DNA from: Eledone cirrhosa | Lineage: Eukaryota | Assembly (NCBI GenBank): GCA_964016885.1 | Contig: OZ024742.1 | Span: 197,470,001 to 197,534,000, forward strand | Direction of reading: 5' to 3' | Length of the DNA stretch: 64,000 nt | Shown: positions 5,260 through 64,000 of the stretch, one piece after another | Layout: the number at the start of each line of letters is the position of its first letter | Numbering within the stretch: position 1 is the stretch's first letter | The notes under the pieces: generated by a model | What the model saw: the letters and a program-made list of their open reading frames with translations, nothing else | Told to the model about the DNA's origin: nothing | Databases searched by the model: none | Program-made: the position numbers and the translations under genes

Positions 5260-5261
<2 letters not shown>

Positions 5262-8205: not shown

Positions 8206-8258
<53 letters not shown>
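5258..8258 (+). mobile_element. R4/Dong-like RLE non-LTR retrotransposon, copy 1, 5'-truncated and frameshifted
   Basis: RT motifs NYRPITCL, KNAFD and IFQGDSLSP, with FMHD in place of FMDD; CRIC...HIVSEC, RHD and RPDLV...DVACP restriction-like endonuclease; (AAT)n tail 8206-8258. Confidence 0.9.
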
Positions 8259-12300: not shown

Positions 12301-12972
12301 AGGAGGAGGCTAGCCCACTGTGCAGGATCTGTGGAGAGAGGAGACTGTGGCTCACATTGTATCCGAGTGTAAACACCTAGCCCAGACTCACTATAAGGGC
12401 TGGAGACATGATGTGATGGGCAGGGTGATCCACTGGCACCTATGCAACGTAAACAATTTACCACATTCTGAGAAGTGGTATGAGCATAAGCCAGAGGCGG
12501 TGATAGAAAACGATCAGGTGAAGGTGCTGTGGGATTTTAGGATACAGACGGACAAGAAACTGGAACACAATAGACCTGACCTGGTGGTTTTGGACAAAGA
12601 AAAAAGGTCGTGCCTGATTGTGGATGTGGCCTGCCCATTCGACACGAGGGTGCAAGAGAAGGAGAGGGAGAAAATTAACCGATACCAGGACTTAAAGTGG
12701 GACGTAAAAAGGATTTGGAACTGCCATGAAGTCAAAGTGATCCCGATTGTCATAGGCGCACTAGGTACTATTTCAAAAAGTTTCCAGGGATGGTTAAAGA
12801 AAATTGGCCCCTTCACGCTTTTTGGAACGCTTCAAAAGGCATGCTTGCTGGGAACAGCAAGAACCCTCCGATACGTCCTGAATATCTGAGGCTGCAGGTA
12901 GTGGCTTGATATTCATCTCAACAAACTTTCCAGTTAACTAACATCAATGACTGAGACTCAAAGAGTAATAAC

Positions 12973-13031
<59 letters not shown>
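9338..13031 (+). mobile_element. R4/Dong-like RLE element, copy 2, near full length with stops and frameshifts
   Basis: ORF pieces 9496-9861, 9882-10256, 10506-12380 (FMDD intact) and 12320-12889 (RLE); same 3' UTR as copy 1; (AAT)n tail; 5' boundary approximate. Confidence 0.9.
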
Positions 13032-14085
<1,054 letters not shown>

Positions 14086-24823: not shown

Positions 24824-27800
24824 GCAATAATAATAATAACGACAACAACAATAATAATATACATATTCATATATATATACACACACACGCACGCACATAA
24901 GCATATCTACACACACACACACACACAAACACACGATAGCAACTAACAGTGCTGCGATCGAATGTGGCTTTTTAGCCCAGCCAATGATCCAAAATGTCTT
25001 GCACAGAGTCGGCAACCAAAACATTTACTGGGAATAGTCGGCTGTGGTTGGAGTTCGTGTACTTTTGCATGTCGCTTGAGTCCTCCTGCTGATTTACATT
25101 CTCTACCACATGTTTGGCAAGCATGATGAGTAGCATCTCCAACAGCAGCCTGGTAGTCAACCACTGGTCTTACTTTATGACTGCGAAGATGACTTTCGAG
25201 TCCAGCTTTGCTTAGGCAGAGTCTCGCACAGACGCTGCATGTCAGAAACATAGGAGGACCCTCGCCGTCTGGAAGTGCAACAGCAATACCCTTCCTCACG
25301 TCCCGCTTTACTTTCTCGTGTGCGATTCGAGATGCCTCAAAGGCAACTTTTCCCTCATATACAGTCTTTCTCCATTTATTACGATCAGCAGCAATATTTT
25401 CCCATGTATCAGCAGAGATGTTAGCGTCTTTCAGAGAGGCCTTCAAGGAATCCTTATACCTCTTTTTTGGTTTATGTGGCGGTCGTTTTCCTTTAACCAA
25501 CTCTCCATAGAAGAGTTGTTTTGGTATTCTAGAATCCTTCATCCTGGCAAGGTGACCACTCCAACGGAGTCGCTGCTTAAGCACAAGAGCTTCTATACTG
25601 TCACACATAGAGCTTTCCAAAATCTCGACATCACTGATGTGGTCCCTCCAGCGAACGCCATGTATCCGTCTGAGACACATCTGATGGAAACGCTCCAATT
25701 GCTTAAGGTGGCGTCGATATGTGACCCAGGTCTCGCAGGCATAAAGAAGACAAGAGAGTACACATGCCCTGTACACCCTTACCTTTGTCCTCCTGCATAT
25801 GTCTCGCCGACCCCAGAGTCGCCTTTCTAGCCTTCCGAAAGCATCACTTGCTTTCCTAATCCTAAGTGAGATTTCACTGTCAAGGTTGCCGTATCGATTG
25901 ACAGTGCTTCCCAGGTAGACAAACTGATCAACCACTCCAAGTCGTTTGCCATACACATAGATGTTTGGTTCAGTGTACTGCCTACCAGGTGCAGGTTGGT
26001 ACATGACGACGGTTTTCTTGAGACTGACAGTCAAACCCAGGGCAGTGCAAGCGTCAGAAAATACATTCAAAATGTGCTGCATATCACTCTCTGTGTGCGC
26101 TACAAGATCGCAATCATCTGCATACAAGAGGTCTCTTATGACTGATGTAAATACTTTTGTCTTCGCAGCAAAGCGCCTGATGTTAAATATGCTGCCTGAG
26201 GTTCGATATCGGATGTAAACACCATGCTCGCAATCCCTGAATGCAACACAGAAAACCATTGCAAAGTATATGGCAAACAGGGTCGGTGCTGGAATATCCC
26301 CCTGTTTCACTCCATTTTTTACTGAGATAGGCTCCGACATGTTACCTCCGACATTAACCCAAGCCTTCATGTCGTCATGGAAAGACCTAACTAAAGCAAG
26401 GAACTTATCAGGGCAACCAAGTTTCTGGAGAACCCTCCATAATGCATCTCTGTTGACAGTATCGAAAGCCTTTGTCAGATCGACAAAAACCTGATACAGA
26501 TCCAAGCCCTGTTCAATGCACTTCTCCTGGAGCTGTCTAGCTGAGAAGATCATATCAGTAGTGCCGCGTCCAACACGAAAACCAGATTGACTTTCAGGAA
26601 GGACACAATCTGCAATGTGTGTCAGCAGACGGTCCAGAAGCACCCTACATAAAACTTTCCCCACGACAGAAAGCAATGATATACCTCTGTAGTTCCCACA
26701 ATCATTCCTGTTACCCTTTCCCTTGTACAAGACCACCATTACTGCATCTCTCCAGTCCTCAGGCACGGATTCATTAGCCCATATCCCTCCAAACAGAGAG
26801 TGAAGATGTTGCAGGAGTCTCTCACCACCATATTGTAGGAGCTCAGCATGTATGCCATCCATACCTGGAGATCTTCCACTGTTCAGCTTCGAAATAGCCA
26901 CTGCAACCTCCACAAGTGTCGGAGGCTCTGCGAGAGCTACTTTCACAGGACTTTCCGGAATGAGATTGAGGAAATCTTCACTGACGACAGACGGCTGATT
27001 CAAAAGATCATCAAAGTGCTCCCGCCACCTTCGTAGAATTCCCTGTGAGTCACGAAGAAGTTCTTTGCCATCCCTGCTGCGAATCGGTGTCACCAGAGAA
27101 GAAGACGGTCCATAAACCTCACGCAAGAGACTGTACAACAGCTTTGTGTTATTGCAATCAGACGCAGTTTGTATCTCACCAGCCTTCTCACTCCACCACT
27201 GATCCTTCATCTGAGAAAGACTCCGCCTAACACGTGATTTTACATCCCTGAGCTCCTCATGCAACGTATTCCTCTCCTGTGGTCTTGCCGTCAAGTAGCG
27301 TGACAGAGCGCGCCTCTTATCAGCCAACAAGTCATCTATATGCACATCTTTCTCATTAAACCAGTCCTGATGTTTTCTCTGCACCAATCCCAGAACACGT
27401 CTGCCTACATCATAAACCGACTTTTTAAGGGTCGGCCAATCCTCACCAAGATCTGCAGCCTGCATCTCTTCTTCCAATGTCCTCTTCACATTTTTATCCT
27501 TAAGACGAGCAGCATTCAATCTTTTGGGCAGGGTAACACCAGGAGCCCGGATTTTACGTTTGGTGATTAGATTCACTTTTGCGCGTACCAGGCGGTGGTC
27601 CGTCCAGCACTCAGCTCCACGAAGAACACGAACACACCGCACATCCTGTCTGTCACGCATCCTGACTAGGACGTAGTCCAAAAGATGCCATTCCTTAGAT
27701 GCAGGATGCATCCATGTGGTCTTGAATTTGTTCTTTTGTTGGAACATGGTGTTGGTAACACACAGATCCAAGCTCCTCACACATCTGCAGCAAGAGCATA

Positions 27801-28498
27801 CCATTGCTGTTACACTTTCCCACCCCATGCCTTCCGATTACATTCCATGTGTTAAAATCCCTACCCACTCTAGCATTAAAGTCACCAAGCACGATGACTT
27901 TGTCTGCCTGAGGGATATTTCTTAAAACACCTTTCAAGGCATGGTAAAAGGACAGTTTTTCTTCATCGACAGAATTCATAGTTGGAGCATACACACTCAC
28001 CAGGGTAGCATATCTTCCCTTGTCCAGCGGAACTCTCATGGACATAAGACGCTCACTAATCCCCACTGGGAATTCTTCCAATTTATTCACCAGTACAGTC
28101 TTAACAGCAAATCCTACCCCAGCCTCTCTTCTGGTTCCTTCATCTCTTCCTTTCCAGAAGAATGTATATTCTCCACAAAATTCCGTAAGATGACCATCTC
28201 CAGCTAACCTCGTCTCAGACAAAGCCACGATGTCAAGATCGTAACGTCGAAGCTCCTTCGCAACAAGAGCGGTCCTTCGTTCAGGACGCTCCAAAGAATC
28301 CCTGTCAAGCAGCGTCCGTACGTTCCAGCAGCCAAGACTAAATGCCCTGTTTGGCTCTATTACAATGGCACGATGACGGGCGGGCCCAGGTTGTGATAAC
28401 TTGGGGCCCCTGCCCTTATTGCCAATGATCTTTTTTGTTCCAGAACCCAAATTGGCAATTATCTCGTTTACATTGTTCTGGAACATCATTGAATTGGG

Positions 28499-28529
<31 letters not shown>

Positions 28530-28534
28530 TAATA

Positions 28535-28569
<35 letters not shown>

Positions 28570-40157: not shown

Positions 40158-40169
40158 ATAAGCAGGAGA

Positions 40170-41290
40170 GTTGGAATAAACAGTGTTGGAATAAGCGAGT
40201 GGGGTGAAATAAACAGTGTTGGGATAAGTGAGGGAGGTGGAATAAACAGTGTTGGGATAAGCGAGTGGGGTGAAATAAACAGTGTTGGGATAAGCGAGGG
40301 AGGTGGAATAAACAGTGTTGGAATAAGCGAGTGGGGTGAAATAAACAGTGTTGGGATAAGTGAGGGAGGTGGAATAAACAGTGTTGGGATAAGCGAGTGA
40401 GGTGAAATAAACAGTGTTGGGATAAGTGAGGGAGGTGGAATAAACAGTGTTGGGATAAGCGAGTGAGGTGGAATAAACAGTGTTGGAATAAGCGAGGGAG
40501 GTGGAATAAACAGTGTTGGAATAAGCGAGTGGTGTGGAATAAACAGTGTTGGGATAAGCGAGTGGGGTGAAATAAACAGTGTTGGAATAAGCGAGTGGGG
40601 TGAAATAAACAGTGTTGGGATAAGCGAGTGGGGTGAAATAAACAGTGTTGGGATAAGCGAGGGAGGTGGAATAAACAGTGTTGGGATAAGCGAGTGGGGT
40701 GAAATAAACAGTGTTGGGATAAGCGAGTGGGGTGAAATAAACAGTGTTGGGATAAGCGAGTGGGGTGAAATAAACAGTGTTGGGATAATGAGTGGGGTGA
40801 AATAAACAGTGTTGGAATAAGCGAGGGAGGTGGAATAAACAGTGTTGGGATAAGCGAGGGAGGTGGAATAAACAGTGTTGGAATAAGCGAGGGAGGTGGA
40901 ATAAACAGTGTTGGGATAAGCGAGTGGTGTGGAATAAACAGTGTTGGGATAAGCGAGTGGGGTGAAATAAACAGTGTTGGAATAAGCGAGTGAGGTGAAA
41001 TAAACAGTGTTGGGATAATGAGTGGGGTGAAATAAACAGTGTTGGAATAAGCGAGGGAGGTGGAATAAACAGTGTTGGGATAAGCGAGGGAGGTGGAATA
41101 AACAGTGTTGGAATAAGCGAGGGAGGTGAAATAAACAGTGTTGAGATAATGAGTGGGGTGAAATAAACAGTGTTGGAATAAGCGAGGGAGGTGGAATAAA
41201 CAGTGTTGGAATAAGCGAGGGAGGTGGAATAAACAGTGTTGGAATAAGCGAGGGAGGTGGAATAAACAGTGTTGGATAAGCGAGGGAGGT
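40170..41290 (+). repeat. 33 bp minisatellite, ~34 copies
   Basis: Unit GRAATAAACAGTGTTGGRATAAGCGAGKGRGGT; CAGTG recurs at 40181, 40214, 40247 and onward. Confidence 0.97.
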
Positions 41291-41905
41291 AGAATATCTG
41301 TAATTTTTCTAGATTGTCTCTGCTGAATTTTAGAAAACCAGAATTAGTCGTTTAGTTTACATATAGAGACCCCCAACCCATCCTATTTATTTTACAACGT
41401 ATGGGATTTCTTGTAATGTATTTTTTTTGTCATGAATAATGTTTTTTCTTTAATATCTGAAGAAAATTAAAATAAAATTTCGCCGGAGGTAGATTAGCAA
41501 AATCTAATAAGCGAGGGGCAGGGTGGAATATGAGCCAGGGTGTCTGAAAAATTAACAAGTGGTGGGGGGGGGGTCGATTATTCGAGACTCGAGAGTGAAT
41601 GTTTGTTATATAAAATTATTTTTGTAATATGTTTGTTTACATATACACACACACACATATATATATATGTGTGTGTAAACAAACATGGATTTCGAATACC
41701 TGATGATATCACCGGATTCATACGGAACTCGGTCATTGAAATGATCATAATATAATAAACCTTTCAAGGATTTATACAAGTGCAGCCTCCTGTCATTTTA
41801 TTAGATATATATATATATATGTATATATATATATTAGAAAGTGAGGTTTTTTTTACAAAATGAAAAATAACCGAGGTGTCCTACACGAGTGAAAGTTTAA
41901 AGAAA

Positions 41906-46022: not shown

Positions 46023-47522
46023 ATACTTCCTTCTATGTGTCTTTCTCACTTCCATTCTTTCGCTCTCTATCCTTTTCTGGAAGAAATCTGCTGTATTCAG
46101 ACCTAGAAAGGAGATGATCTCCATCGAGTTTAAAGGTGCCCATATATTAATATGGTGTCTTTACCAATCCCTCAGGAATTACGAGACCATGCATCTTAAA
46201 TGTCGAAAAGGTAGTCATGACAAATAACATTTTCTATACTCTGGTTAACCTAGGGTTAAATAGCAACATGCTAAGCCATGAGGAGGATTAGACTAGAAGT
46301 TATATTTCTCATCTATTGCAACCTCTCACAAAAGCTCTTGTTTTATTCCAAAGCCCGAGCAGAATGACTTGTAAAATAGTAAACATAGTAATGACATTAT
46401 TGTAAAGGTTACATTCTGTGGATATCGATGTAAAGGAGAGGAGGCAGTAGTATGTTTATACAATAGAAAACTCGGCTATATTTCTGTCGAAATAAACGAC
46501 ATTGTTTATCTGTGCGTGTACAGATGTGTTAGAGAGACGCGCCTCTGTGTTTAATAACAAATATGTGTGAGAGCACGTGCATATGTACATGTATAACTTC
46601 GTATGTTTTACAATAATCTATCTTTAGGAATGGATGTATAAACATCCAACTGTTTATACCAGAAGAATACTCTCGCTCACATGGTTTACTTGCTTGTACT
46701 TGTGATGGCGTTCATCCGATTCCATCAAAGGAATTCACTGTGTAAGTACATTTCAATCGAGTTACTTCGGGCGATTGGTTTTAGAAGCGGTGCCCAGCCG
46801 CAAGTATATGTATTTTATGATAGTGCATTCCAAGCATTGCATCAGTTATAGTGCCGACTTCTCGCTTTCATATGCAACACAATTTGGCGGAGCCTGTACC
46901 GTGACTGGGACGTATGGGAAGGAGTTTGGTCGGCATAGGTGATAAACACAACATATTTGAGCCATTTTGTAGCCCAGCTGGACCTCACCACACTGCCCAA
47001 CTTAGGCATACCGACCCTCAGCACCTGGACATCCATCATCCTAAACATGACTGGACATCTATCATCATGAACATTCTAGATATCCATTACCTAACGCCTG
47101 TTTGTTTTAGGTTAGAAGCTGTTAATAATGGTGGCAAAAAAAAAAACGTCTTCAGGCTGTTAACCTCAACTTTACTGTTATCTGAATATTTTTGCTGTTA
47201 TTTGGCTTTTTTGTAAAACAATGTTCCAATGGCGTTGTCTCATAAAACTATAACTACGTTATAACCTTGAATGTAAATAGAAGTTCAACTCCGATGTATG
47301 TATATGTATGTATGCATGTATGTATGTATATATGTATGTATGTATGTATGTTTATATGTTTGTATGTATGTGTATTCAACTCCGACTCGAATACACATAC
47401 ATACAAACATATAAACATACATACATACATACGTACATACATACATACATACATACATACATACATACATACATACATACATACATACATACATACATAC
47501 ATACATGTGTATATACATATTT

Positions 47523-47656
47523 ACACACTTTTGGATGGCCGTTGACTCTTATGAGTTCTTCCGCCTTTGTCATGTTTTGTTTTTTGTCCTGCAGGGTGTC
47601 CAAATTCAACCTCCTCACGAAGTAAACTTGGTGAGGTTGCCGGTTTAGTCGCCGAC
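47523..47656 (-). mobile_element. RTE family-1 5' leader fragment
   Basis: Matches 24397-24531 and 61672-61804. Confidence 0.8.
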
Positions 47657-47667
47657 ATACATACATA

Positions 47668-50118
47668 TCGGAGGTATCTTACTGACCTCCACCAAGAAGT
47701 TCTTAAGGGAGATACACTTATACCAGAATAGTTGACATTAGCACAAACATTACTGCTCCCCAAGAAAAAAGACACCCACTTGGCAAAAAACTACCGACCC
47801 ATTGCATGCCAGAACCTGATGTATAAGATGTATACAGCCAGCCTGAACCTATTCCTCCAAGATTACTGTGAAAATAATAACATCATCACAGATGAACAAG
47901 CAGCTGGAAAGAAAGGAGTTTGGGGATGTGCTGAACAACTCCTAATCAACAAAACTGCGATGTCGGAGGTGCGAGAACTTAGGAGGAATATGGCTACAGT
48001 CTGGCTGGACTACAAGAAAGCTTTCGATTCTGTTCCCCACTCTTGGATGATAGAGGCCCTCCAGCTTGTTAAAGTCCCAGGACATTATTATCAGAGCCAT
48101 AGAGAAGCTGTCTCCTAAGGTTAAAGACAGAGAGGGAGGACTCTATTTTCACTGATAAAATAAAATATCGCAGGGGTATATTTCAGGGAGACTGTCTCTC
48201 TGTGATATTATTCATCCTGTCATTAAACCCCTTGTCAAAATCCTGCTCAAGAAATGTGAAGGATACATCATTGACTCACATGAGGACAGAAATACGAACC
48301 TAACCCATAATTTCTTTGTGGATGATCTGAAACTCTATGCCAAGAACATGGATGGGATAAAGAAAAATCTTGACCTGGTTACAACGTTCTCAAAGGATAT
48401 AGGAATGGAGTTTGGCCAAGATAAATGCTCATATATGACTGTAAAGCGGGGGAAAACAACAACCCAATCTAGCAACATTGTCATCAATGGCCTAACTGTT
48501 TCAGCGATATCTGATGAGAACTGCTACAGATACCTGGGGATAGATGGGAACTTATCCTATAATGGTATCTGTAATAAGGAACGCGTAACCAGGGAATACT
48601 ACACCCAATTAAGAAAGATTTGGTCATCGGAACTGTCTGCGCAAAACAAAACAGTGGCTCACGATGTGTTTGCTGTGCCTGTCCTAACACCAACGTTTGG
48701 AATACTCAATTGGACGATAGACGAAATCCGAGCGATTGATGTTGGAACTCGAAAAATACTAAACAACACCGGAAACTTCCACATCAACAGTGACATCGAC
48801 CACCTTTACATGAAACGTAAGCAGAGAGGCAGAGGCCTAACATCAGACCAGACATCATTTGAATGTCGCATCATATCTCTCCGACATCATTGATGAACCT
48901 CGAAGCGTAGGAGCCCGTCTCTCGAGCATGTCTATCTGCATGAAACAGATAAGATCATGAGAATTGGGAAGGAACTCCTCGAGAGATATTCCCTGTGTGA
49001 TAATCATAAGCTCACACCCAGGGAAGTCGCTCAGCAGTATCGCAGTGAATCCATGGATGAAAAACTGCATGCTTTTCAGCAAAAAATCATGCATGGATAT
49101 GTTGCCAGGAAGCTCCAGAGTGAGAGTAATATAGATAAGGAAAGTAGTCTATCTTGGACCAACAACCGCTATATTGGCTCCCACTTTGAAGGATACGCTT
49201 TTGCAATCCAAGAACAGGAAATTAACACGAAATACCTGATTCACAAGAGAGATAGGGATGCAGGCAAAACACCTAAATGTGATAACAAGTGCAAACTCTG
49301 CAGAATTAACATCGAAGATATCACCCATGTCATCAGCAGCTGTCCAAAGATGTCATCGCGGTACTATCTACCTATTAGGCATGATATAGTGGCCAAAACA
49401 CTGTACAATGCAATCCGTAAAAAAGATAGCCCCGATAATAAACACATTAAAAGCTACAGCAATGCGGAAGACATCCATGTTCATAATATGTAAGAGTACT
49501 GGTGGAATGTTCCTGTAAATACCCCCAATAAAATACAGGCATAACAGACCAGATATTATGATATGGGACAGGGTAAAGAAAGCATGCACAGTAGTGGAAA
49601 TTAGCTGCCCAGCAGATGCCAATGTAATATCAAAGATTAGCGAAAAGGAGAATATTTATGCAGAACTGATGAGAAATCTGCAGATACTCCACCCCGATTA
49701 CACCTTCAGATTTATGCCTGTGATTGTTGGGGCACTAGAGTATGTTAGTAAATGCCTCAATACAAATCACGAGAAGCTAGGCTTCACAGGAACAGAAATA
49801 ACACAACTAGTTAGGAAATTACAAGTCCAATCCATTAATGGAACAGTAAAAATATGTAAAACATTCCAGACATTTTGCATCTAATAACTGCATTTACACA
49901 TGTACAGATGAAAAGCATATACACATGAACACATACACCTCAGAACATACACATCCACAGATACAATAACATCCATAACTACACATGCATGCATGCAGAC
50001 ATACATATCTACCTAGTTGATGTTGTGTAAATTCCAATGAGATAGTCTTGTGTCTATGTTAGAAACCGACTGTCTCTCTATTGGGAAAAAATTTGTGAAA
50101 TTATAAAACCAGAAGAAC
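47668..50118 (+). mobile_element. RLE non-LTR retrotransposon family A, copy 1, 5'-truncated, in (CATA)n
   Basis: NYRPIAC, DYKKAFD, IFQGD, FVDDLK and YLG; CKLC...HVISSC, RHD and PDI...EISCP; ends AAAACCAGAAGAA(CATA)n. Confidence 0.9.
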
Positions 50119-50130
50119 ATACATACATAC

Positions 50131-50161
<31 letters not shown>

Positions 50162-50215
50162 CATACATACATACATACATACATACATACATACATACAT
50201 ACATACATACATACA

Positions 50216-52234
50216 TGCACTCTTGGATGATAGAGGCCCTCCAACTTGCTAAAGTCCCAGACATTATTGTCAGAGCCATAGAGAAGCTGTCTTCTTCTTG
50301 GGCTACTATCCTAAGGTTAAAGACAGAGAGGGAGGACTCTATTTTCACTGATAAAATAAAATATCGCAGGGGTATATTTCAGGGAGACAGTCTCTCTGTG
50401 ATATTATTCATCTTGTCATTAAACCCCTTGTCCTTTCTGCTCAAGAAATGTGAGGGATAAATCATTGGCTCACGGGAGGACAGAAATACGAACCTAACCC
50501 ATTTCTTTGTGGACGATCTGAAACTCTATGCCAAGAACATGGATGGGATGAAGAAAAATCTTGACCTGGTTACAACGTTCTCAAAGGATATAGGAATGGA
50601 GTTTGGCCAAGATAAATGCTCATATATGACTGTAAAGCGGGGAAAAACAAAAACCCAATCTAGCAACATTGTCATCAATGGCCTAACTGTTTCACCGATA
50701 TCTGATGAGAACTGCTACAGATACCAGGGGATAGATGGGAACTTATCCTATAATGGTATCTGTAATAAGGAACGCGTAACCAGGGAATACTACACCCGAT
50801 TAAGAAAGATTTGGTCATCGGAACTGTCTGCGCAAAACAAAACAGTGGCTCACAATGTGTTTGCTGTGCCTGTCCTAACACCAACGTTTGGAATACTCAA
50901 TTGGACGATAGATGAAATCCGAGCAGTTGATGTTGGAATTCGAAAAATACTAAACAACACCGGAAACTTCCACATCAACAGTGACATCGACCGCCTTTAC
51001 ATGAAACGTAAGCAGAGAGGCAGAGGCCTAACATCAGACCAGACATCATTTGAATGTCGCATCATATCTCTCCGACATCATTGACGAACCTCGAAGCGTA
51101 GGAGCCCGTCTCTCGAGCATGTCTATCTGCATGAAACAGATAAAATCATGAGAATTGGGAAGGAACTCCTCGAGAGATATTCCCTGTGTGATAATCAAAA
51201 ACTCACACCCAGGGAAGTCGCTCAGCAGTATCGCAGTGAATCCATGGATGAAAAACTGCATGCTTTTCAGCAAAAAATCATGCATGGATATGTTGCCAGG
51301 AAGCTCCAAAGTGAGAGTAATATAGATAAGGAAAGTAGTCTATCTTGGACCAACAACCGCTATATTGGCTCCCACTTTGAAGGATACGCTTTTGCAATCC
51401 AAGAACAGGAAATTAACACGAAATACCTGATGTGATAACAAGTGCAGACTCTGCAGAACGAACATCGAAGATATCACCCATGTCATCAGCAGCTGGTACT
51501 ATCTACCTATGAGGCTATCTACCTATGAGGCATGATGTAGTAGCCAAAACACTGTACAATGCAATCCGTAAAAAAGATAATAAACACATTAAAATCTACA
51601 GCAATGTGGAAAACATCCACGTACATAATATGAAAGAATACTGGTGGAATGTTCCAGTAAAAACCCCAATAAAATGAAGGCATAACAGACCAGATATTAT
51701 GATATGGGACAGGGTAAAGAAAGCATGCACAGTAGTGGAAATTAGCTGCCCAGCAGATGCCAATGTAATATCAAAGATTAGGGAAAAGGAGAATATTTAT
51801 GCAGAACTGATGAGAAATCTGCAGATACTCCACCCTGATTACACCTTCAGATTTATGCCTGTGATTGTTGGGGCACTGGGCTATGTTAGTAACTGCCTCA
51901 AAACAAATCTTGAGAAGCTAGGCTTCACAGGAACAGAGAGAACACAACTAGTTAGGAAATTACAAGTACAATCCATTAATGGAACAGTAAAAATATATAA
52001 AACATTCCAAAAATGTTGCATCTAATAACTGCATTTACACATGTACAGATACAAAGCATATACACATGCACACATACAACTCAAAACATCCATATCCACA
52101 CATACAATAACATCCATATCTACATGCATGCATGCATACATAATCTACCTAGTTGATGTTGTGTAAATTCCAATGTTAGAAACCGACTCTCTCCCTATTG
52201 GGAAACCATTTGTGAAATTATAAAACCAGAAGAA
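50216..52234 (+). mobile_element. RLE family A, copy 2, head-to-tail with copy 1
   Basis: Near-identical ORF pieces 50215-50460, 50509-51084, 51148-51435 and 51699-52025; same 3' end. Confidence 0.9.
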
Positions 52235-52294
52235 CATACATATATACATACATGCAGTCATTCATATTTACATATATACATGCATGAATGTACA

Positions 52295-53922
52295 TGTTAA
52301 TTGCTACTTCTTGTCTGAAGAGTGCAATCCATTCATTGAACATTGCATGGTCAGGTTCATGCAGGTGACTTTTCAAACCCACTTTTGTTTTGCAGGCACA
52401 TTCACAGATGTGACACTTGAACTGTCTGTCTCCTGGTAAAACCATGTCTGGTCAGTCCACCATCTGATTTGCAAGTTAGGCACTCACTGCAAATGTATCG
52501 TCGAGTTTGTGGTTGTAGAACCATCTCACAAGGGCTAGATTTCTCCCCGGCTCGTGTGATTTCAGAAGGTTGACAAATCCAGCTCTTGTTAGGAGAAATC
52601 GGCCACATACATTGCACCTCAATTCCTGCTGGATATTTGCATGTATTGCACTTGAACCCTGCTTACGAAATGAACGTTTCAAAACAGCATGCTCCACTCA
52701 TATTTGATAATCTTTCTCCGTGATGTACGGCCTTCGGCCAGTCTCTCCCAGTTCTCTATATCAATCTTCAGAGCTTTAAAATTGTCTTTTATGACATCCT
52801 TAAACCGCTTCTTTGGTTTATGCTGTGGCCTTTGCCCACAGGTCAGCTCCCCATAAAATAACTATTTAGGCAGCTCCTCATACAATAATTGTTTAGGCAG
52901 CCCTCCATCTTCCATCCTTTAATATCTCGTTGATAGTTGACCTTATCTCATCAAGGGTTGGATCATTCCTCACCTCTGTAACAGTCTCCCTTTGCAGCAG
53001 TCCATAAATAATTTCCTCCTCAACTACAGATGGATTGTCAAACAGATCTTTAGAGTGTTCAGTCCACCAACTCATGTTACTTGATGGATCTTTGATGAGA
53101 ACATTCCCATCTTTTGACTTTCGTGGTGCCATTTTTTATGATTGTGGACCCAAAACCTACCTTATTGTGCTGTAGAGTACCTTCAGATCTGTAGTTATAA
53201 GCCCTCTGCATCTCTGCTGAAACTTCAGACCACCAGTTCTTTATCTTTCATGTTTTACTTTGCAGTTTTAATTTGCTTCTTTGAAGGTTTTCTCAAAAGT
53301 TGTCTTCACTAGACCCTCTGCAACAAGACACTTCTCATACAGCTTGTTCTTTTCTTCAATGAGCATGGTGATTGCAGCATCATTGTCATCGAACCAGTCT
53401 CTGTGTTTTGTTCTCTTAAGACCAAGTACATCAGCCCCAACACTATAAACTTGTGTTCTAAACTATTCCCAAGTTCCATCAAAGACGATGTTGTCCAGTG
53501 CATTTTGAAGAGCATCTCGCATTTCTACACTCTGCAGTTTTGACACATCAAAACGTTTTGGCGTTTGTCCTCAATTTTCTTCAGATTTCCCACGTACAAG
53601 TTTGTGGTCTGTACCACATTCTGCACCGTGCATAACACTTAGACAGCAGATATCATATATTGCATATGACCAGCTCAAACTCAGTGCAAAGGAAGAGCAT
53701 TGCCCATGTCGTGACGTCCTAAAACGCTCCATATGTGCTCGTTTCCAATACATGCATCAACATCTCCAAAAGCAAGATCTTATCCAAATGTGGAATTGAT
53801 GCGTCCCCTTGCAAAAGGGACTCTTAGGTGCATGATTCGATCACTTATGCCTTGTGGTTGTTCCAGTCATTTTGTGATCTTTGTCTGGACAGAAAAACCT
53901 ACTCCTCCATTCCTTTTCTCCC
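52295..53922 (-). mobile_element. Highly degenerate RTE with C2H2 remnants
   Basis: GAECGTDHKLV, RKSKDG, CNVCGR and CHICEC..K.GLKSH fragments. Confidence 0.75.
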
Positions 53923-53987
53923 CATACATACGTACATACATACATACATACATACATACATACATACATACATACATACATACATAC

Positions 53988-54600
53988 ATGGTGGTGGCTG
54001 CCAACTCATTTTCGAGTACGGCCACTACTTTATATCCATGTAGGAGAACCCCTACCGATGCGCTGAACGAGTGTGACTTTTTTATCCAGCCAGCGACTTG
54101 AAAGCTCTGGTACAAACACTACACTTGTGACAACTATTGACACATAGTGCTGGGCCCATGGTACCCGGTGACGACAAGTGCAGAGAGATCTCCAGATATA
54201 AAGCAATGCCTGTGCCGTGAAGCTTTTATAGTGAGCAAAGGCACTGCACAAAGCCAGTCCCACTCTCTTAACCAAGATGATATTTACCAAAAAGAAGAAC
54301 AAGTCAACATCATTGGATACCATCAGAGTTGCAGGTGTTATATCAGAGTTTTCCTTCTCCTAGAATTCTGCCTTGACAAAGGCTAAGGGGTCATCTCTCC
54401 CGGTAATTTTGGATTGCCATTGACTCTTAAGAGCTCCTTTGCCCTTTGACAGGTTTTGTTTTTAGTCCTGCAGGATGTCCAAAATCACCCTCCTCATCAA
54501 GAAACCTTGGTGGGGTTGCCAGTTTAGTCGCCAACGACCCGACCATGAGACAGGTTGTACTGGGATACATGTTACCAGTAGCACCAACTGGTGACCTGAC
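53988..54600 (-). mobile_element. Bipartite non-autonomous RTE derivative (family 2)
   Basis: Shares the 5' leader with families 1 and 3; 3' end CTCGAAAATGAGTTGGCAGCCACC(ATGT)n; further copies at 60252-60657 and 62728-63193, 3' fragment at 31905-31970. Confidence 0.8.
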
Positions 54601-54764
54601 ATACATACATACATAATGGCATACATACATACATACATACATACATACATACATACATGCATACATGCATACATGCATACATACATACATACATACATAC
54701 ATACATACATACATACATACATACATACATACATACATACATACATACATACATACATACATAC

Positions 54765-57700
54765 ATGATGGCTGCAAACTCTGCCAAGAGTATTGCAATC
54801 GTTTGTCAGATTCAGAAGTGTGACGCTCGGATATGGCTTTTCAAGCCTGCTAGAGACTTGCACTCCTTCACACACTGACAACAACTATGATCTCCTTGGC
54901 TTGAGGTCCTGCATCAGGTTTCTCGTGAACCCTCACAATACCGTGGAGATCATAGTTCACTGGTTCTCTTTTAACATGGCTGCGACTGTGGCTCCTGAGA
55001 CCAGATTTGCTCAAGCAAATGTTTCCACACTCGGCATTTCAATTCAATGGATACAGCGATCGTTTCGAGAGATACACCAGGGCATTGCTTACGCACATCG
55101 CGTTTGATCTTCTTGTGATCTACGCGTCTGTCCTAAAAATTATGGCCCCCATCATTCACCATTCCACGCCAAGTTTCTCTTTCAAGAGCTTCTATCTCCC
55201 AGTCAGCCATCATCAAACCATTTTTTTTCAATGAGTCCTTTACACAATCCTTGAATCGGAGCCTTGGCTTGTGAGGTGGTCTGTTACCCTCACAAAGCTC
55301 GCCATAAAGAGTTGTTTGGGGATTCGATCATCCTCCATTCTGTAGAGGTGTCCGGTCCATCGCAAACCCCGTTGGTCGATGAAACTCTCAATGCTCCGAC
55401 ACTCACTTTTCTCAAGGACCTCAACATCACTCACATGCATCTGCCACTTGATACCGAGCATCTTTCTGAGACACTGCTGGTGAAACCGTTCCAGTCTGTG
55501 GATATGCCGCCTGTAGGCAACCCATGTCTCACATGCATACAGCAAAGCTTACAGTACACATGCAGCATACACTCTAACCTTGGTCCTCATTGTGATTCCT
55601 TGCCTGCACCAAAGACGGTCGTTGAGCCTTCCAAATGACTCACTTGCCTTACTAACACGTAGACCAACTTCTGCATCCAGAGAGCAGGCCACACTCAGAG
55701 TACTCCCCAAATACACAAATGTGTCAGCAGCCTTCAGCTTTTGACCGTATACGTATATGGAGGGTTCATTGAAAACTTTATCCGGAGCAGCTTGGTACAT
55801 GACGACAATCTTCTTCAGACTGATTGTCAGTCTCAAAGCACTGCACGCATTGCAAAAACAATCCATAAGGTGTTGCATGTCACTCTGGGAGTGTGAAAAG
55901 AGATCACAATCATCTGCATATAAATATTCTCTGACCAAGGTATTCAGTACCTTAGTATTGGCAGTGAGATGCCTAAGGTTAAACAGCTTGCCGGAAGTGC
56001 GATATCTGAGATAGATACCGTGTTGACAATCGTTGAAGGCCATGAAGAAGATCATTGCGAAATACAAGGCAAACAAAGTCGGTGCAGGTATATCACCCTG
56101 CTTGACACCATTTTCAACCGAGATTGGCTCAGACAGTTTACCTCCAACATTCACTCATGCCTGCATGTCGTCGTAGAAGAGTTTCAGAATGTTCACAAAC
56201 TTTTCAGGACAGCCCAATCTCTCCAAAATAACCCACAAAGCCTTCCGATTAACGGTATCAAATGCCTTGGTCAGATCGACAAAAACCAGGTATAAGTCCA
56301 TGCGCTGCTCAATGCATTTCTCTTGAAGTTGTTTGGCCGAGAAGATCATGTCAACAGTGCCTCTGCCATTCATAAAGCCACATTGGGACTCAGGAAATAC
56401 CTCAACAGCAATGTGCTGTATCAATCTGTCCAACAAAATCCTGCATAAGATCTTCACAGCCACAGATAGCAGCGAGATACCTCTGTAGTTACCACACTCA
56501 TCTTTGGCTCCCTTTCCTTTGTAAAGTACCACCATCAATGCATCTTTCCAGTCCTATGGCACATCTTCTTCATTCCAAACATTCACAAAGAGATCAGTGA
56601 GGCGGTTTAAGAAGTTATCACCAGCACACTTGAAAATCTCGGCACTCAATCCATCCATTCCAGGTGACTTGCCGCTGTTTAATTTGGCAATGGCCTTCGC
56701 CACCTCATCAAATGAAGTAACTCAGTACTACCTGTCTCATGGTCGGGTCGTCGGCGACTAAATCGGAAACCCCACCAAGCTTGCCTTGTGAGGAGGGTGA
56801 TATTTGGACACCCTGCGGGATGAAATACAAGACCCGGCAAAGGGCGGGGGAATTCAGCAGAGTCAACGGCCATCCAAATAGTACCTTTTTTTTTTTACCT
56901 GGGAGTGAAGGTCCCCCATCTGATGATGTTGACCAGTTCTCCTTTTCGGGTAGTGTTTTCGATGCTCAGAGTGTGTGATTGGTCGCGGACATGGCATTTC
57001 CCCACTTAAGAAGCCTTCAAATCACAGACATCGCTTGTTCAGGATCTGTTACAGGTTCGTGTGGCTGGCCGTAGCCTAAAAGTGCACCAAACTCTATGAT
57101 GACAGATGATAACCGTGAAGTCAATGGCAGTAAGGGATCTGGAACTTATTGTGAAGGGGTATGGCCCGGCAGGTGTCCTATGGCACCGCAGCGTGGGCTC
57201 GGTCATCATCCTACAACTGCAAAGAGGTTCAAACCTCTGAATATTGGATGCTGGAATGTAAGAACTTTACTTGATTCCCAGTCCAGTGAAACTCGCCCTG
57301 GAAGAAGATCTGCTTTGGTGTCGAGGGAACTCAATCGCTATAGCATGGACATCGTTGCTCTTTCAGAAACGAGATTGGCAGGTGAGGGTCAATTCACAGC
57401 ACAGAAGGGAGGATATACCTTCTATTTGAGTAGTGGAACAGAGGGTCGCATTTGCTATCAGGAATGGAATCGTCTCAAAGCTGGAAAATCTTCCTTGTGG
57501 ATTCAATAATCGGATAATGTCCATGAGAGTCCCTCCGATTCAAAACCGCTTTGTGACTCTGGTCAGTATGTACGCTCCTATTATGTGTGCCAGTGATGAG
57601 ATGATAAAAAACTAAGTTTCTACATGTCTTTGAGAGAGGTCATCCATGGTGTACTTTATGCAGACAAGATTGTCATCCTTGCTGATTTTAATGCAGGTGT

Positions 57701-58641
57701 TGGTAATGACTGGGAAGCTTGGAGTGTGATGGGCAAGCATGGAGTAGGTAAGTGCAATAACAATGGCCTACTTCTGTTGCAGATGTGCACTGAGATGGAT
57801 CCTGTTGTTGGGAACACGCTCTTTCAGAAGAAAGACAAATATAAGACAACTTGGATGCATCCAGGTTCCAAGAAGTGACACCTTATTGATTTTGTTTTAG
57901 CGAGGAAATGTGATATCAGGGATATTACATTGGTTCGTGTATTGCGAAGCACGGAATGCTGGACTGATCATCGTCTGGTGCGCGCCAAGTTTCAATTTGT
58001 TGTGAAGCCTAAAGTAAGGGGGAAGAAGGTTGCACTTCCAAAACAACTAAACGTGGCTCGTTTGAAAACAGAGAAAGTCAGAGCTGAGCCGTCGAAGTCC
58101 TTTGAGTCCATGGAATGTGAAAACACTTGGGAATCATTGAATAACACCGTCTATGATGTTAATGCTGGAGTTTTGGGTCATACCAATAGAAAGCATAAAG
58201 ACTGGTTAGATGAAAATGATGCAGTGATCCAGACCTTGCTTGAAGAGAAACAAAAAGTGCTGACATCATTGTTGTGTGAGACACGTTCTGACAGGAGTGA
58301 CCGGACCTTTAGGCAGATCAAGGCACGTGTGCAACATCGATTGAGAGTCATGCAGGATACCTGGTGGAGCCAAAAGGCTGATGAAATCCAGAAGGCCTCA
58401 GATAGACATGATACAAAGCTCCTATATAGTCTGCTCAGGGAGGTGTATGGTCCGACCGGTTCACAAATATCACCACTTCACTCCAGAAATGGCAAGGAGT
58501 TGTTCAGAGATCCGAAGGAAATCCTGAACAGGTGGGATGATTACTTTGATGAGCTTCTCAACAGAACATCAGAAATTGATGATGAGTTCATCCGGTCGAT
58601 TCCATCCCAACCTACAAAGCTGGCAATGGCTGATCCTCCTT
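54765..58641 (-). mobile_element. RTE LINE (family 3) with inverted 5' half
   Basis: RT half on - (54765-56717); 5' UTR plus EN half on + (56717-58641); protein continuity AMADPP|SFDEVAKAIAKLNSG. Confidence 0.88.
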
Positions 58642-58990
58642 GACTGTTTTGTTTTGGTGAGTCTTTAACTGACGTTGGTGTCTACTGGCCGAGAGGTTAT
58701 TGTTCTCCACACTTCCGATAGAAAGTAATACCAAAGAGACCGCAATCGGCAATATTTTGTACATGGCTTCTATGACTTCAAGGACTACCTTTACTGAGGC
58801 AAATTAGGCCACACACATTACACATAGTCATTTTGAGCATCTGAAAATCCAGGTAAAGAAATATCGTGTAGTCCCTTACTTTGACCCCTCTTTAATTGTT
58901 CATGCTCCACACGAGATGTTTTATACACATGCATACATACATACATACATACATACATACATACATACATACATACATACATACATACAT

Positions 58991-59041
58991 AATGGCTGCC
59001 CCTTGTTATCGAGTATGGCCATTGCACGAGAAGAAAAAAAA

Positions 59042-59073
<32 letters not shown>

Positions 59074-59087
59074 TTAAAAAAAAAGAG

Positions 59088-59150
<63 letters not shown>

Positions 59151-59206
59151 CATACATATATACATACACACATACATACACATACACACACACATACATT
59201 AATAAC

Positions 59207-59264
<58 letters not shown>

Positions 59265-59300
59265 GCAATAATAATAGCAATAATAATAATAACGACAACA
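58991..59300 (-). mobile_element. RTE family-1 3' UTR fragment with expanded microsatellites
   Basis: ATGGCTGCCCCTTGTTATCGAGTATGGCCATTGCACG matches 24680-24716. Confidence 0.7.
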
Positions 59301-59360
59301 CCATACATACCTACATACATACATACATACATACATACATACATACATACATACATACTT

Positions 59361-59838
59361 GATGTCTGCAAACTCGTATTCGAACATTGCCATCGCCGAT
59401 AAAATGCCCAAAAATGTGACGCACAAATGTGGCTCTTTAAACCAGCCATACTTGCACCCTCTCGCACATAAATGGCAAATGTAGGCTCTTCGGGGACTTT
59501 GCATTGCTTTGCTCTGCATGTGTGTTCTCATAAGCCCTTCCATGTTAGCACATTCCTTGCCACATTTTTTACACCTTTTCAGATCATAATCTACATGAGG
59601 TCTACTGATATGACTTTGTTCGTGTCTAGTCAAACCAGCTTTATTCAGGCAGACTCGACCACAGTGCTGCCAAACCAGATGATGTTCAACAGCAGACAGT
59701 TCAGAACAGTCTCTTTTCACTTATTTTCTTTTTCAATGTTAGGTGTTCTCCCGAACGAGTTTCAAAGTGTTCACTACCTGACTTGATCAAACGTCTCCAC
59801 TTCACACGCTCCTCGGCCATTTTCTCACATTCATCAGA
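59361..59838 (-). mobile_element. RTE 3' fragment with C2H2 fingers
   Basis: CGRVCLNKAGLTRHEQSH, CKKCGKEC and CHLCAR..MAGLKSH. Confidence 0.7.
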
Positions 59839-59866
59839 TACATATATACATACATTCATACATACA

Positions 59867-60247
59867 TGATGGCTTCCCCCTCGTTATCTAGTATGGCCAT
59901 TACACGATATAACATTATTGATAATTATTATTATGAGTTCAAATCCCGCCGAGGTTAACTTTGCCTTTCATCCTTATGGGGTTGATAAAATAAAGTACCA
60001 GTAATGTACTGGGTAATTGCTGGTCTTGTGCCAAAAAGTAGACAGAATTATTGATAATTATTAATTAATACTATCGTGCAATGCCTGTGCGTGAAGATTT
60101 TTTTTAAAGTGAGGAAAGACTGTGCACTGAGCCAATCCCACTTTCTGAGCGACAGTAGCTATAACCCGAAAAGAAGAAAAGATCAATATCATCGGTAACT
60201 ACTGATCCGCAGGTTTTATGTCGGGGTTATCCTAGTTTCCTGAGTTA
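59867..60247 (-). mobile_element. Family-1 derivative carrying a 5'-truncated SINE insertion (59934-60047, +)
   Basis: SINE core flanked by duplicated ATTATTGATAATTATTA. Confidence 0.8.
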
Positions 60248-60251
60248 ACAC

Positions 60252-60657
60252 ATGTGGTGGCTGCCAACTCGTTTTCGAGTACGGCCACTACTTTATATCC
60301 ATCTAGGAGAACCCCTACCAATGCGCTGAACCAGTGACTTTTAGTCCAGCCAGCGACTTGAAAACTCTGGTACAAACACTACACTTGTGACAATTATTGA
60401 CACATAGTGCTGGGCCCATGGTACCATGTGACGACAAGTGCTGAGAGATCTCCAGATATAAAGCAATGCCTGTGCCGTGAAGCTTTTATAGTGAGCAAAG
60501 GCACTGCACAAAGCCAGTCCCACTCTCTTAACCAAGATGATATTTACCAAAAAGAAGAACAAGTCAACATTATTGGATACCATCAGGGTTGCAGGTGTTA
60601 CACCAGAGTTTTCCTTCTCCTAGAATTCTGCCTTGACAAAGGCTAAGGGGTCATCTC
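60252..60657 (-). mobile_element. Family-2 derivative, 5'-truncated
   Basis: Near-identical to 53990-54397. Confidence 0.85.
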
Positions 60658-60726
60658 ATACATACATACATACATACATACATACATACATACATACATA
60701 CATACATACATACATACATACATACA

Positions 60727-61232
60727 AACAATGAGAAGGAATATTTTGAGATAGATAACACTAAAGAATACTGATGGAACCTGAAAATAGAAACTGCCAC
60801 CAAATTAAAGTACAACCAGCCTGATATTGCTTTTGGGGACCACACATTGAAAATGTGCTCTGTTGTAGAAATCAGCTGCCCACTTGATATCAACGTTGTA
60901 AGAAAAATACAAGAGAAGGAAGACATCTACGGGCCATTGATGAGGAGTTTGCAGATCCAGTATCCAAGATACACCTTCAGCTTTATACCCATCATTATTG
61001 ACGCTACAGGTTATACACCAGCCCGCTTGAACCAAAGTATAACTGAACTTGGATTTTTGGACAAAGAACGTAGCTTCCCAATTCATAGACTACAAATGGC
61101 TGCGATAGGTGGCACCTTCAAAATTTGCAAAACACTCTTGAGATTCAAGGCTTGACAATTTCTTTTCTTTTACAACCATGCCACCAGGAAGGTGGCCGGT
61201 CAAAAAGGTACTCAAAATTAGAGAAAGAGAGA
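60727..61232 (+). mobile_element. RLE family B 3' fragment
   Basis: QPDI..CSVVEISCP...KEDIY...KICKT; ends GAGAAAGAGAGA(CATA)n. Confidence 0.85.
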
Positions 61233-61246
61233 CATACATACATACA

Positions 61247-61869
61247 TGATGGCTGCCCCCTCCTTATCGAGTATGGCCATTGCGCGATATACCATTATTA
61301 ATAATTATTAATTAATTACATCGTGCAATGCCTGTGCGTCAAGATATTTTTAAAGTGAGGAAAGACTGTGCACTGAGCCAATCCCACTCTCTGAGCGACA
61401 ACAGCTATAACCCGAAAAGAAGAAAAGATCAACATCATCGGTAACGACTGAGCCGCAGGTTTTATATCGGAGTTATCCCAGTTTCCTGAGTTGCCTTCTC
61501 CTAGAAGAATGCCCTGACAAAGGCTAGGGGTCCTTCACTCCCAATGGTTTAACCGCGCGATCGGGTGTCCAGCCCGACTATTTCTATGTCCCCGCGCATA
61601 TACATACACATGCACCCATGCATATACACATATACATATACACACATGTATATGTGTATATACATATATACACACTTTTGGATGGCCGTTGACGCTTATG
61701 AGTTCTTCCGCCCTTTGTCAGGTTTTGTTTTTTGTCCTGCATGGTGTCCCAAATCTCCCTCCTCACCAAGTAAACTTGGTGGGGTTGCCGGTTTAGTCGC
61801 CGACGACCCGACCATGTGACAGGTTGTACTGGGTTACATGTTACCAATAGCACTCAAGAGAGTCCCGAC
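61247..61869 (-). mobile_element. Family-1 bipartite RTE derivative, full length
   Basis: Complete 5' leader, UTR and 3' end, between (CATA)n tracts. Confidence 0.88.
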
Positions 61870-61925
61870 ATACATACATACATACATACATACATACATA
61901 CATACATACATACATACATACATAC

Positions 61926-62410
61926 AGATGGCACTAAGGAATACTGGTGGAACCTGAAAATAAAAACTGCCACCAAATTAAAGCACAACCGGCCTGATAT
62001 TGTAGTTTGGGACCACACATTGAAAACGTGTTCTGTTGTGGAGATCAGCTGCCCACTTGATGTAAACGTTGTCAGAAAAATACAGGAGAAGGAGGACATC
62101 TACGGACCATTGATGAGGAGTTTACAAATCCAGTATCCAAGATACACCTTTAGCTTCATACCCATCATTATTGGTGCTACGGGTTATATACCAACCCGCT
62201 TGGACCAAAGTATGACTGAACTTGGATTTGCGGACAAAAAGCGCAGCTCCCTAATTTATAGTCTACAAATAGCTGCGATAGCTGGCACCTTCAAAATTTG
62301 CAAAACATTCTTGCGATTCAAGGGATGACAATTTCTTTTCTTTTACAACCTTGCCACCAGGAAGGTGGCCGGTCAAAAAAATATACTCGAAATTAAGAGA
62401 AAGAGAAAAC
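61926..62410 (+). mobile_element. RLE family B 3' fragment
   Basis: EYWWN...HNRPDIVVWD...EISCP. Confidence 0.88.
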
Positions 62411-62422
62411 ATACATACGTAC

Positions 62423-62697
62423 ATGATGATGGCTTCCCCCTCGTTATCGAGTATGGCCATTGCACGAGAAAAAAATAATAATAATAACAATAATAATAAC
62501 AATAACAACAATAACAATAACGTCAACAACAACAATAATAAATATACATATATATATATACACACACGCACACACAAATATTTCGATACACACACACACA
62601 CACGATACCAATTAACAGCGCTGCGATAGAATGTGGATTTTTAGCCCAGCCAATGATCTAAAATGTCTCGCACAAAGTCGGCAACCAAAACATTCAC
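62423..62697 (-). mobile_element. RTE family-1 3' end including the last zinc finger
   Basis: CFGCRLCARHFRSLAGLKIH matches the C-terminus of ORF 24943-27828. Confidence 0.85.
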
Positions 62698-62727
62698 TGT
62701 ACATACGTACATATATACATACGTATA

Positions 62728-63193
62728 TGGTGGCTGCCAACTCGTTTTCGAGTACGCCCACTACTTTATATCCATGTAGGAGAACCCCTACCGATGTGCT
62801 GAACGAGTGTGACTTTTTAGTCCAGCCAGCGACTTGAAAACTCTGGTACAAATACTACACTTGTGGCAATTATTGTCACATAGTGCTGGGCCCATGGTGC
62901 CATGTGACGACAAGTGCAGAGAGATCTCCAGATATAAAGCAATGCCTGTGCCGTGAAACTTTTATAGTGAGCAAAGGCACTACACAAAGCCAGTCCCACT
63001 ATCTTGACCAAGATGATATTTACCAAAAAGAAGAACAAGTCAACATCATTGGATACCATCAGGGTTGCAGATGTTATATCAGAGTTTTCCTTCTCCTAGA
63101 ATTCTGCCTTGACAAAAGCTAAGGGGTCATCTCTCCCGGTGATTTTGGATGGTCATTGACTCTTAAGAGGTCCTTTGCCCTTTGACAGGTTTT
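62728..63193 (-). mobile_element. Family-2 derivative
   Basis: Near-identical to 53990-54455. Confidence 0.85.
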
Positions 63194-63227
63194 ACATACG
63201 TACATACGTACATACGTACATACATAC

Positions 63228-63497
63228 TGGAACAGTAAAAATATGTAAAACATTCCAAAAATTTTGCTTCTAATAACTGCATATACACATGTACAGATAC
63301 AAAGCATATACACATGCACACATACAACTCAAAACATACACATACAATAACATCCATATCTACACATGCATGCATGCATACATAATCTACCTAGTTGATG
63401 TTGTGTAAATTCTAATGAGAGAGTCTTGTGTCTATGTTAGAAAACGACTCTCTCTCTATTGGTGAAAAATTTGTGAAATTATAAAACCAGAAGAATA
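63228..63497 (+). mobile_element. RLE family A 3' end
   Basis: Matches 49840-50118. Confidence 0.85.
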
Positions 63498-63555
63498 TAC
63501 ATCCATACATACATACATACATACATACATACATACATACATACATACATACATA

Positions 63556-63860
63556 CGGGCCATTGATGAGGAGTTTACAAATCCAGTATCCAAGATACAC
63601 CTTTAGCTTCATACCCATCATTATTGGAGCTACGGGTTATATACCAACCCGCTTAGACCAAAGTATGACTGAACTTGGATTTGCGGACAAAAAACGCAGC
63701 TCCCTAATTCATAGTCTACAAATGGCTGCGATAGCTGGCACCTTCAAAATTTGCAAAACATTCTTGCGATTCAAGGGATGACAATTTCTTTTCTTTTACA
63801 ACCTTGCCACCAGGAAGGTGGCCGGTCAAAATAATATACTCGAAATTAAGAGAAAGAGAC
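63556..63860 (+). mobile_element. RLE family B 3' fragment
   Basis: Matches 62103-62410; (CATA)n on both sides. Confidence 0.88.
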
Positions 63861-64000
63861 ACATACATACATACATACATACATACATACATACATACAT
63901 ACATACATGTACATGGCGTCTGAGGATGAACAAACGTCCATCTATAATGTTCAAAACGTTGAGCTCTACAAAGGAATACAAATCTATCATATTTTATGTG

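Follow-up and report, generated by a model that had tools for sequence, protein, structure and literature searches.

Two R4/Dong-type LINE families of Eledone cirrhosa occur in (CATA)n repeats with a fixed orientation

A 64,000-nucleotide stretch of the Eledone cirrhosa genome (assembly GCA_964016885.1, contig OZ024742.1, positions 197,470,001 to 197,534,000 of the forward strand; this whole stretch is called the window in the following) contains, between 47 and 64 kb, a nested array of long interspersed nuclear elements (LINEs) with a restriction-like endonuclease (RLE) and runs of the tetranucleotide CATA. This raises the question whether such elements home to (CATA)n and by which means they would do so. 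The original prediction, made from the letters of the window, had proposed two RLE families, here called A and B, with (CATA)n at both junctions and a fixed orientation to the repeat. Its six copies, three of each family, were indeed found at the proposed sites, all on the plus strand and with boundaries that agree within 2–3 nt of microhomology; each begins at a different point of its element directly after a CATA run and each ends in a CATA run. As the array is nested on CATA runs which nearly all face one way, these six copies are not independent of each other. The proposed arrangement was, however, also borne out by genome-wide flank statistics. A and B are R4/Dong-type LINEs that reside in (CATA)n in a fixed orientation throughout the genome. 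The likely cause is their own protein, which would bind specifically to the repeat, nick its TATG strand and start reverse transcription at the nick.

Junctions and proteins of families A and B

For the genome-wide analysis the best 30 of 40 loci per query were used as dispersed copies, with the sets of A and B each including one window copy. The 20 nt upstream of every 5′ junction were compared with seven repeat units, and a unit was assigned if it was the best one and matched at least 15 of the 20 positions. Family A exhibited 23 CATA junctions, two TA junctions and five without a repeat (n = 30), family B 26, one and three, respectively (n = 30). With a background of 0.25% for CATA and likewise 0.25% for TATG, determined at 44,360 positions of 20 arbitrarily chosen 10-kb stretches, the 5′ flanks of dispersed copies are clearly not random. 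TATG-sense 5′ junctions were absent from all 60 A and B copies. Eight junctions had been scored as lacking a repeat. One of them was an interruption within an A copy, in another a CATA run was followed by a short B fragment, and in two B copies such a run was followed by short end duplications, so that a repeat was absent from the remaining four. CATA was found at 5′ junctions irrespective of where an element is truncated. Full-length copies gave a similar picture, with CATA at 27 of 30 5′ junctions for A and, for B, 66 CATA, four TA, two ties and three without a repeat (n = 75). In exact counts over the genome, 4,887 of 6,171 A 3′ ends were followed by CAYAYAYA in the proper phase, and AYAYAYAT preceded 59 of 71 full-length B 5′ ends. 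The 3′ ends of B (L031–L060) carry AAA, TAA or TAATAA before the CATA run, possibly through slippage during priming or as a relic of a TAA-type end.

A TAA-flanked Dong family (family C), of which three plus-strand copies lie in the window (5258–8206, 8867–12964 and 13031–13912), served as comparison. Scored identically, it yielded 12 TAA junctions and one TTA junction (n = 13; 17 of 30 loci were excluded as the junction fell beyond the bounds of the locus or of the reference). As all 13 junctions were TAA or TTA, the classifier does separate families, and TAA was found at none of the 60 A and B 5′ junctions versus 12 of 13 for family C. One family C copy (L118) exhibited a TTA-sense run at the 5′ junction itself, preceded by a TAA run.

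All six A and B copies in the window are 5′-truncated. The first A copy (47666..50117, plus strand) begins in the region of the reverse transcriptase (RT) and retains a broken open reading frame (ORF) with RT, CCHC motif and RLE as well as its 3′ untranslated region (UTR), and the second (50218..52234, plus strand) is likewise broken; both contain stops and frameshifts. They have the (CATA)n run at 50118..50213 (plus strand) in common, which is the 3′ flank of the one and the 5′ flank of the next. The third A copy is a 3′ fragment (63225..63495, plus strand). Family B is represented by three plus-strand 3′ fragments, one consisting of RLE and 3′ UTR (60724..61230), which is a diverged variant with 88% identity to a full-length copy, and two (61924..62410 and 63554..63859) with 98.8% and 97.7% identity, respectively, to an intact full-length copy. 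Further CATA runs at junctions are located at 47656–47667, 60657–60724, 61233–61244, 61869–61924, 63504–63555 and 63862–63905. The runs are partly impure: the one at 47656 has just three units, a CATACGTA-type run precedes 63225, and those 3′ of 52234, 62410 and 63495 are short or degenerate. A degenerate stretch rich in CATA and CACA also occurs inside the A 3′ UTR itself (49920–50010 in the window, and in other A 3′ UTRs).

An intact B protein of 1174 amino acids (aa) is encoded at L066:3424-6948, and a second intact B copy was found in L237. No intact A ORF was present among the full-length A loci inspected, the longest frame there being 833 aa. The B protein is the product of a single ORF of about 1170 aa, with an N-terminal segment of three helices, RT, a CCHC knuckle and a PD-x-E-x-K nuclease, the RLE. 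Pfam matches were RVT_1 (RT; E 1e-24) and zf-RVT, the RT, CCHC and RLE motifs align with Dong-like proteins, and the top structural matches in a fold search were R2 proteins. Motif inspection, alignment and Pfam revealed no apurinic/apyrimidinic endonuclease (APE) in the A and B proteins, whose endonuclease is the C-terminal RLE, and the aligned N-termini do not contain a C2H2 motif, the lack of an N-terminal zinc finger being a trait of R4/Dong. The three helices (residues 27–79) were predicted with high confidence and were alignable to both family C and a protein from Bombyx. Upstream of its start codon B exhibits two 5′ UTR lengths (about 430 and about 625 nt), which track haplotype groups and originate from an internal duplication (L354–L402, L161–L190).

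Probable recognition of the repeat and alternative explanations

Over 84 copies the repeat character of the 5′ flank is correlated with that of the 3′ flank (TATA: rho 0.31, p 0.004; CACA: rho 0.30, p 0.006), a relation to be anticipated if a single older repeat was split into the two flanks. Young B copies, moreover, lie within imperfect runs of hundreds of bases. This fits with the repeat being present before the insertion. By analogy with the biochemistry of R2 and R4, the protein of A and B would recognise (CATA)n, nick the TATG strand first and start target-primed reverse transcription, and the top strand would be cut near enough to leave little or no duplication. The RNA, to judge from B, would start a few nucleotides into the apparent upstream repeat, so that the end of the cDNA could anneal to the target and junction variants would be inherited. 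Each insertion would leave repeat on both sides, and with RTE-like elements entering from the other strand it is likely that nested arrays such as the one at 47–64 kb result. An informal comparison of microhomology at truncated junctions gave a slight excess over expectation for B and no clear picture for A.

Among 75 full-length B copies, TATA occupies the −1 unit in 21, versus four at each of the next five units. When copies were grouped by haplotype (by eye), 19 of 33 copies in one group but only one of 39 in the others exhibited this unit, and a permutation over 18 sites in 72 copies also linked it to the subfamily (1/300). Two copies on different chromosomes (L369 and L383), which are 99.6% identical, have an 11-nt upstream variant in common and diverge beyond it. 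The inherited −1 unit and this variant imply that the RNA carries along a few nucleotides that resemble the repeat. For R2, whose RNA can include upstream target, an inherited junction signature is described in the available part of PMC3774820.

Where this RNA might begin is indicated by a short motif resembling a downstream promoter element (DPE). The motif RGWYV, presumably the DPE consensus, was present in eight of nine lineage 5′ ends and in none of four controls (shuffle expectation 5–17% each), with a +28 rule that puts the start on a pyrimidine-A at most 12 nt upstream, an interval picked post hoc. As this interval was chosen after the data had been seen and the motif is short, the finding can serve as a lead but does not count as a result. 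In B the start would fall at −11, in agreement with the variant which L369 and L383 have in common. The motif would thus suggest an RNA start inside the repeat. The position of the DPE and its use by insect LINEs are covered by the available part of PMC4748587. A descriptor for ribozymes of the hepatitis delta virus (HDV) type matched none of the nine lineage 5′ ends, but is a weak one, as only one of three controls from elements in ribosomal DNA (rDNA) was matched; Rfam searches on five loci yielded no ribozyme and only look-alikes in microsatellites.

Targeting could instead stem mainly from pairing between RNA and DNA: CAUA repeats at the 3′ end of the RNA, and a few at its 5′ end, would pair with the target, and a relaxed nuclease would succeed only where they do, so that the protein would not read the repeat. 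The in-phase CATAC that follows 37 of 50 A 3′ ends, the inherited repeat-like nucleotides upstream of B and the TA-rich runs tolerated by B would agree with such a pairing. However, 3′ flanks adopt the local repeat character in place of a fixed tail, and the varying 3′ ends of B are unexpected of a paired tail. Furthermore, known RLE elements are targeted by their protein, which is established for R2. We therefore regard pairing as an unlikely basis of the targeting. That the element lands without preference and the RT then creates the repeats in the course of insertion, through slippage or by jumping between templates, appears very improbable, as long imperfect flanks surround young copies and flank characters are correlated, whereas a pure new repeat would lack such divergence. 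Products of this kind do exist at a few junctions: in L144 the 5′ end of A has been expanded into a (CAGT)n, and junctions in L035/L062, L043 and L174 carry element ends that are duplicated over a short length, which together suggest template jumps. Random insertion followed by survival in microsatellite-rich safe zones could be thought of in a genome with about 500,000 overlapping (CATA)7 words. Yet the junctions exhibit an exact phase and strand, CATA is found at 77–90% of them compared to 0.25% in the background, and different families use different repeats in one and the same genome. Strand and phase refute this idea, to which we assign practically no probability.

Several observations weigh against recognition of the repeat by the element's own protein, or limit how far the data carry it. 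The sampled loci are the best matches to the query and not random copies, three of 30 A copies lack a 5′ repeat, and one B copy directly abuts another element. Unlike the TATA and CACA contents, the CATG content of the two flanks did not correlate significantly (p 0.32; 84 copies). A comparison with shuffled pairings gave no signal for a target duplication in A (n = 23, p 0.35) or B (n = 15, p 0.85) but a clear one for S1, a short element of the opposite strand (n = 25, 0/200 shuffles); this test is, however, blind to duplications of less than about 7 nt inside the repeat, and it was also without a signal for the RTE-like LINE (n = 12, p 0.28). As no empty (pre-insertion) site was found in contigs from public runs, conclusions on target and duplication are drawn exclusively from occupied sites. 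Finally, neither Pfam nor the fold search matched the N-terminal segment to a Myb/SANT domain.

Opposite-strand elements in the same repeats

The CATA runs of the array also harbour elements of the other strand. S1, a short non-autonomous element, is present in full length at 53991..54600 (minus strand) and in truncated copies at 60254–60657 and 62728–63193. Another such element, S2, whose 5′ and 3′ ends are of the same type, was analysed in the window only (61248..61867, minus strand; pieces at 59868–60246 and 47502–47656). An APE LINE, which we take to be of the RTE type from the anatomy of its ORF, is located at 54767..56714 (minus strand), is 5′-truncated and adjoins a (TATG)n run with its 3′ end; the 5′ part of such a LINE, with UTR and APE, lies at 56717..58643 (plus strand). 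The 5′ part of S1 is 81% similar to the 5′ UTR of the latter, and its 3′ end resembles the 3′ end of the same LINE family. S1 is found within (TATG)n or (TA)n, where its target duplications reach about 29 nt, and its 5′ flanks were TATG in 14 copies, TA in eight, TG in one, tied in one, without a repeat in six and CATA in none (n = 30). S1 hence uses the same repeats as A and B in the opposite sense and more loosely. The RTE-like LINE and its two short derivatives, S1 and S2, have a 3′ end in common and all lie in (TATG)n or (TA)n of this opposite sense.

The idea that the CATA runs are mere 3′ tails of minus-strand RTE-like elements was rejected, since S1 is flanked by repeats on both sides with long duplications, and since RTE-like 3′ ends enter TA, TATG or CA depending on the site. 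An RTE-type 3′ end beyond the 3′ run, across pure repeat, was found for about 16 of 60 copies, in a count restricted to A and B copies. Elsewhere the window contains a 33-bp minisatellite of about 35 copies (40158–41296), a LINE with an 887-aa APE-RT frame (355–5022, minus strand) and a LINE with a 964-aa frame (24943–28567, minus strand). From the anatomy of their ORFs we assume the two LINEs to be Tx1/L1-like and RTE-like, respectively.

Relatives in other samples and known systems

The original prediction had suspected that A and B are related to the TAA-flanked Dong group at 5–14 kb of the window. A close link to this group did not emerge. A and B are 47% identical to each other over 796 aa, but each shares only about 30% identity with the intact protein of family C and with an R4-type protein from Bombyx. 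The tree (FastTree; 103 proteins, 749 columns, with distant homologues thinned, among the matches listed) was rooted on three rDNA-inserted elements and built without named reference sequences of Dong, R4, Rex6, HERO and NeSL. In it, A and B fall inside a clade of 71 members (support 0.954, stem 0.48) which excludes family C, one TAA-flanked metagenome element and the insect R4-type proteins; given this root, the A/B branch is sister to the TAA-flanked and insect R4-type proteins. With this deep separation and the low identity, A and B are not an offshoot of the local TAA Dong. The closest named protein to B among the matches listed, and its sister in the tree, is from Argonauta hians (55%). 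The outgroup consists of three metagenome RLE elements (L311–L313) which are inserted in 28S rDNA, are flanked by a duplication of 13 nt and are taken to be R4 from this site and duplication; in one of them a clear HDV-like fold starts at the junction.

One metagenome scan yielded 33 loci, of which 14 group within the A/B clade. Eleven of these have CATA or CTTA at a junction and three do not exhibit any run. (CATA)n is present on both sides of L292, L297 and L303, whereas eight members are associated with (CTTA)n, either on both sides (L296), at the 5′ end (L291, L293, L300) or at the 3′ end (L295, L299, L301, L302). L295 and L301 are nearly identical, and L299 also starts with an (ATA)17 run that could either encode an Asn-rich linker or represent a TAA junction. 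As the CATA set comes from one record prefix and the CTTA set from two, perhaps as few as two other hosts are represented. Family A groups, with weak to moderate support, with CTTA elements, which suggests at least one switch between CATA and CTTA. DNA of family A was covered, mostly at 90–95% identity, in sequence runs of two other organisms. A, B and these relatives thus likely form a branch of R4/Dong that homes to four-letter repeats. A more far-reaching scenario is possible, though we would not call it probable: an old cross-species R4/Dong branch has specialised on C(A/T)TA repeats and switched between CATA and CTTA, a DPE and not a ribozyme starts its RNA on an A inside the target repeat, and the target thereby serves the element twice, as the place where transcription starts and as the homology needed for 5′ joining.

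This branch and its testable 5′-end mechanism are of main interest here. Closely related RLE proteins (45–53% identical) whose targets, CATA versus CTTA, differ by a single base represent, together with the TAA family in the same genome, a natural series for finding the domain that reads the target. For assays no element has to be reconstructed, since intact copies of B occur naturally and its full-length insertions are numerous and nearly identical. The inherited junction unit extends the heteroduplex model of R2 to a microsatellite target. In addition, RLE retrotransposons are under development for gene insertion, and one that targets a repeat widens the choice of sites.

That (CATA)n is an undescribed target, as had been supposed, holds only in part. 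According to the available parts of PMC3812793, Dong targets (TAA)n, and the R1-clade elements WaldoAg1, WaldoAg2 and WaldoFs1 target ACAY repeats, which include (CATA)n. The A and B flanks, CATA with CACA and TATA variants, agree with this ACAY target. What does look new is a tetranucleotide target within the R4/Dong clade and the whole CATA/CTTA branch across samples; no R4/Dong element specific for CATA, CTTA or another tetranucleotide was found in the literature searched, a scope that left out Repbase, Dfam and most subscription papers. Microsatellite targets are otherwise known from Togen, which targets (TG)n, and from some HERO families (PMC4640811, as far as available). For octopus, 51 Dong-R4 families, five of them recently active (PMC13282606), and one Dong consensus (PMC9115989) are reported, and the available parts of these sources and of PMC10294476 count such families without a target sequence. 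They belong to the same class as A and B but could be set beside them by description only, and A and B may already be among these unnamed families.

Among the closest known systems is Dong itself. Dong of Bombyx mori, DongAg, DongBg and Darwinula Dong1/2 possess, like A and B, a single ORF with RT, CCHC and RLE, an N-terminal helical segment and a fixed sense of insertion into a microsatellite. In most insects, molluscs and cnidarians, however, this microsatellite is (TAA)n and not (CATA)n, and a diverged Myb/SANT domain is described for R4/Dong (PMC7998251, available in part); A and B belong to another deep branch. Moreover, Dong of B. mori has a 5′ HDV-like ribozyme (PMC3774820, in its available part), whereas A and B have none by the weak descriptor. 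R4 of Ascaris, which is specific for rDNA, agrees with A and B in the anatomy of the clade, but differs in its rDNA target and its 13-nt duplication, and the three outgroup elements taken to be R4 are only 24–27% identical to B. R2 with upstream target in its RNA resembles B in uniform 5′ junctions and in junction variants inherited via the RNA, yet its 5′ end arises from ribozyme cleavage of an rRNA co-transcript (PMC3774820, same part), while the candidate for B is a downstream promoter element. With Waldo it is the target that is in common, as ACAY covers (CATA)n; Waldo is an APE-type element of the R1 clade, A and B carry an RLE, and a shared target would hence be convergent. A and B thus work like Dong but stand outside the TAA Dong lineage, and their target converges on that of Waldo.

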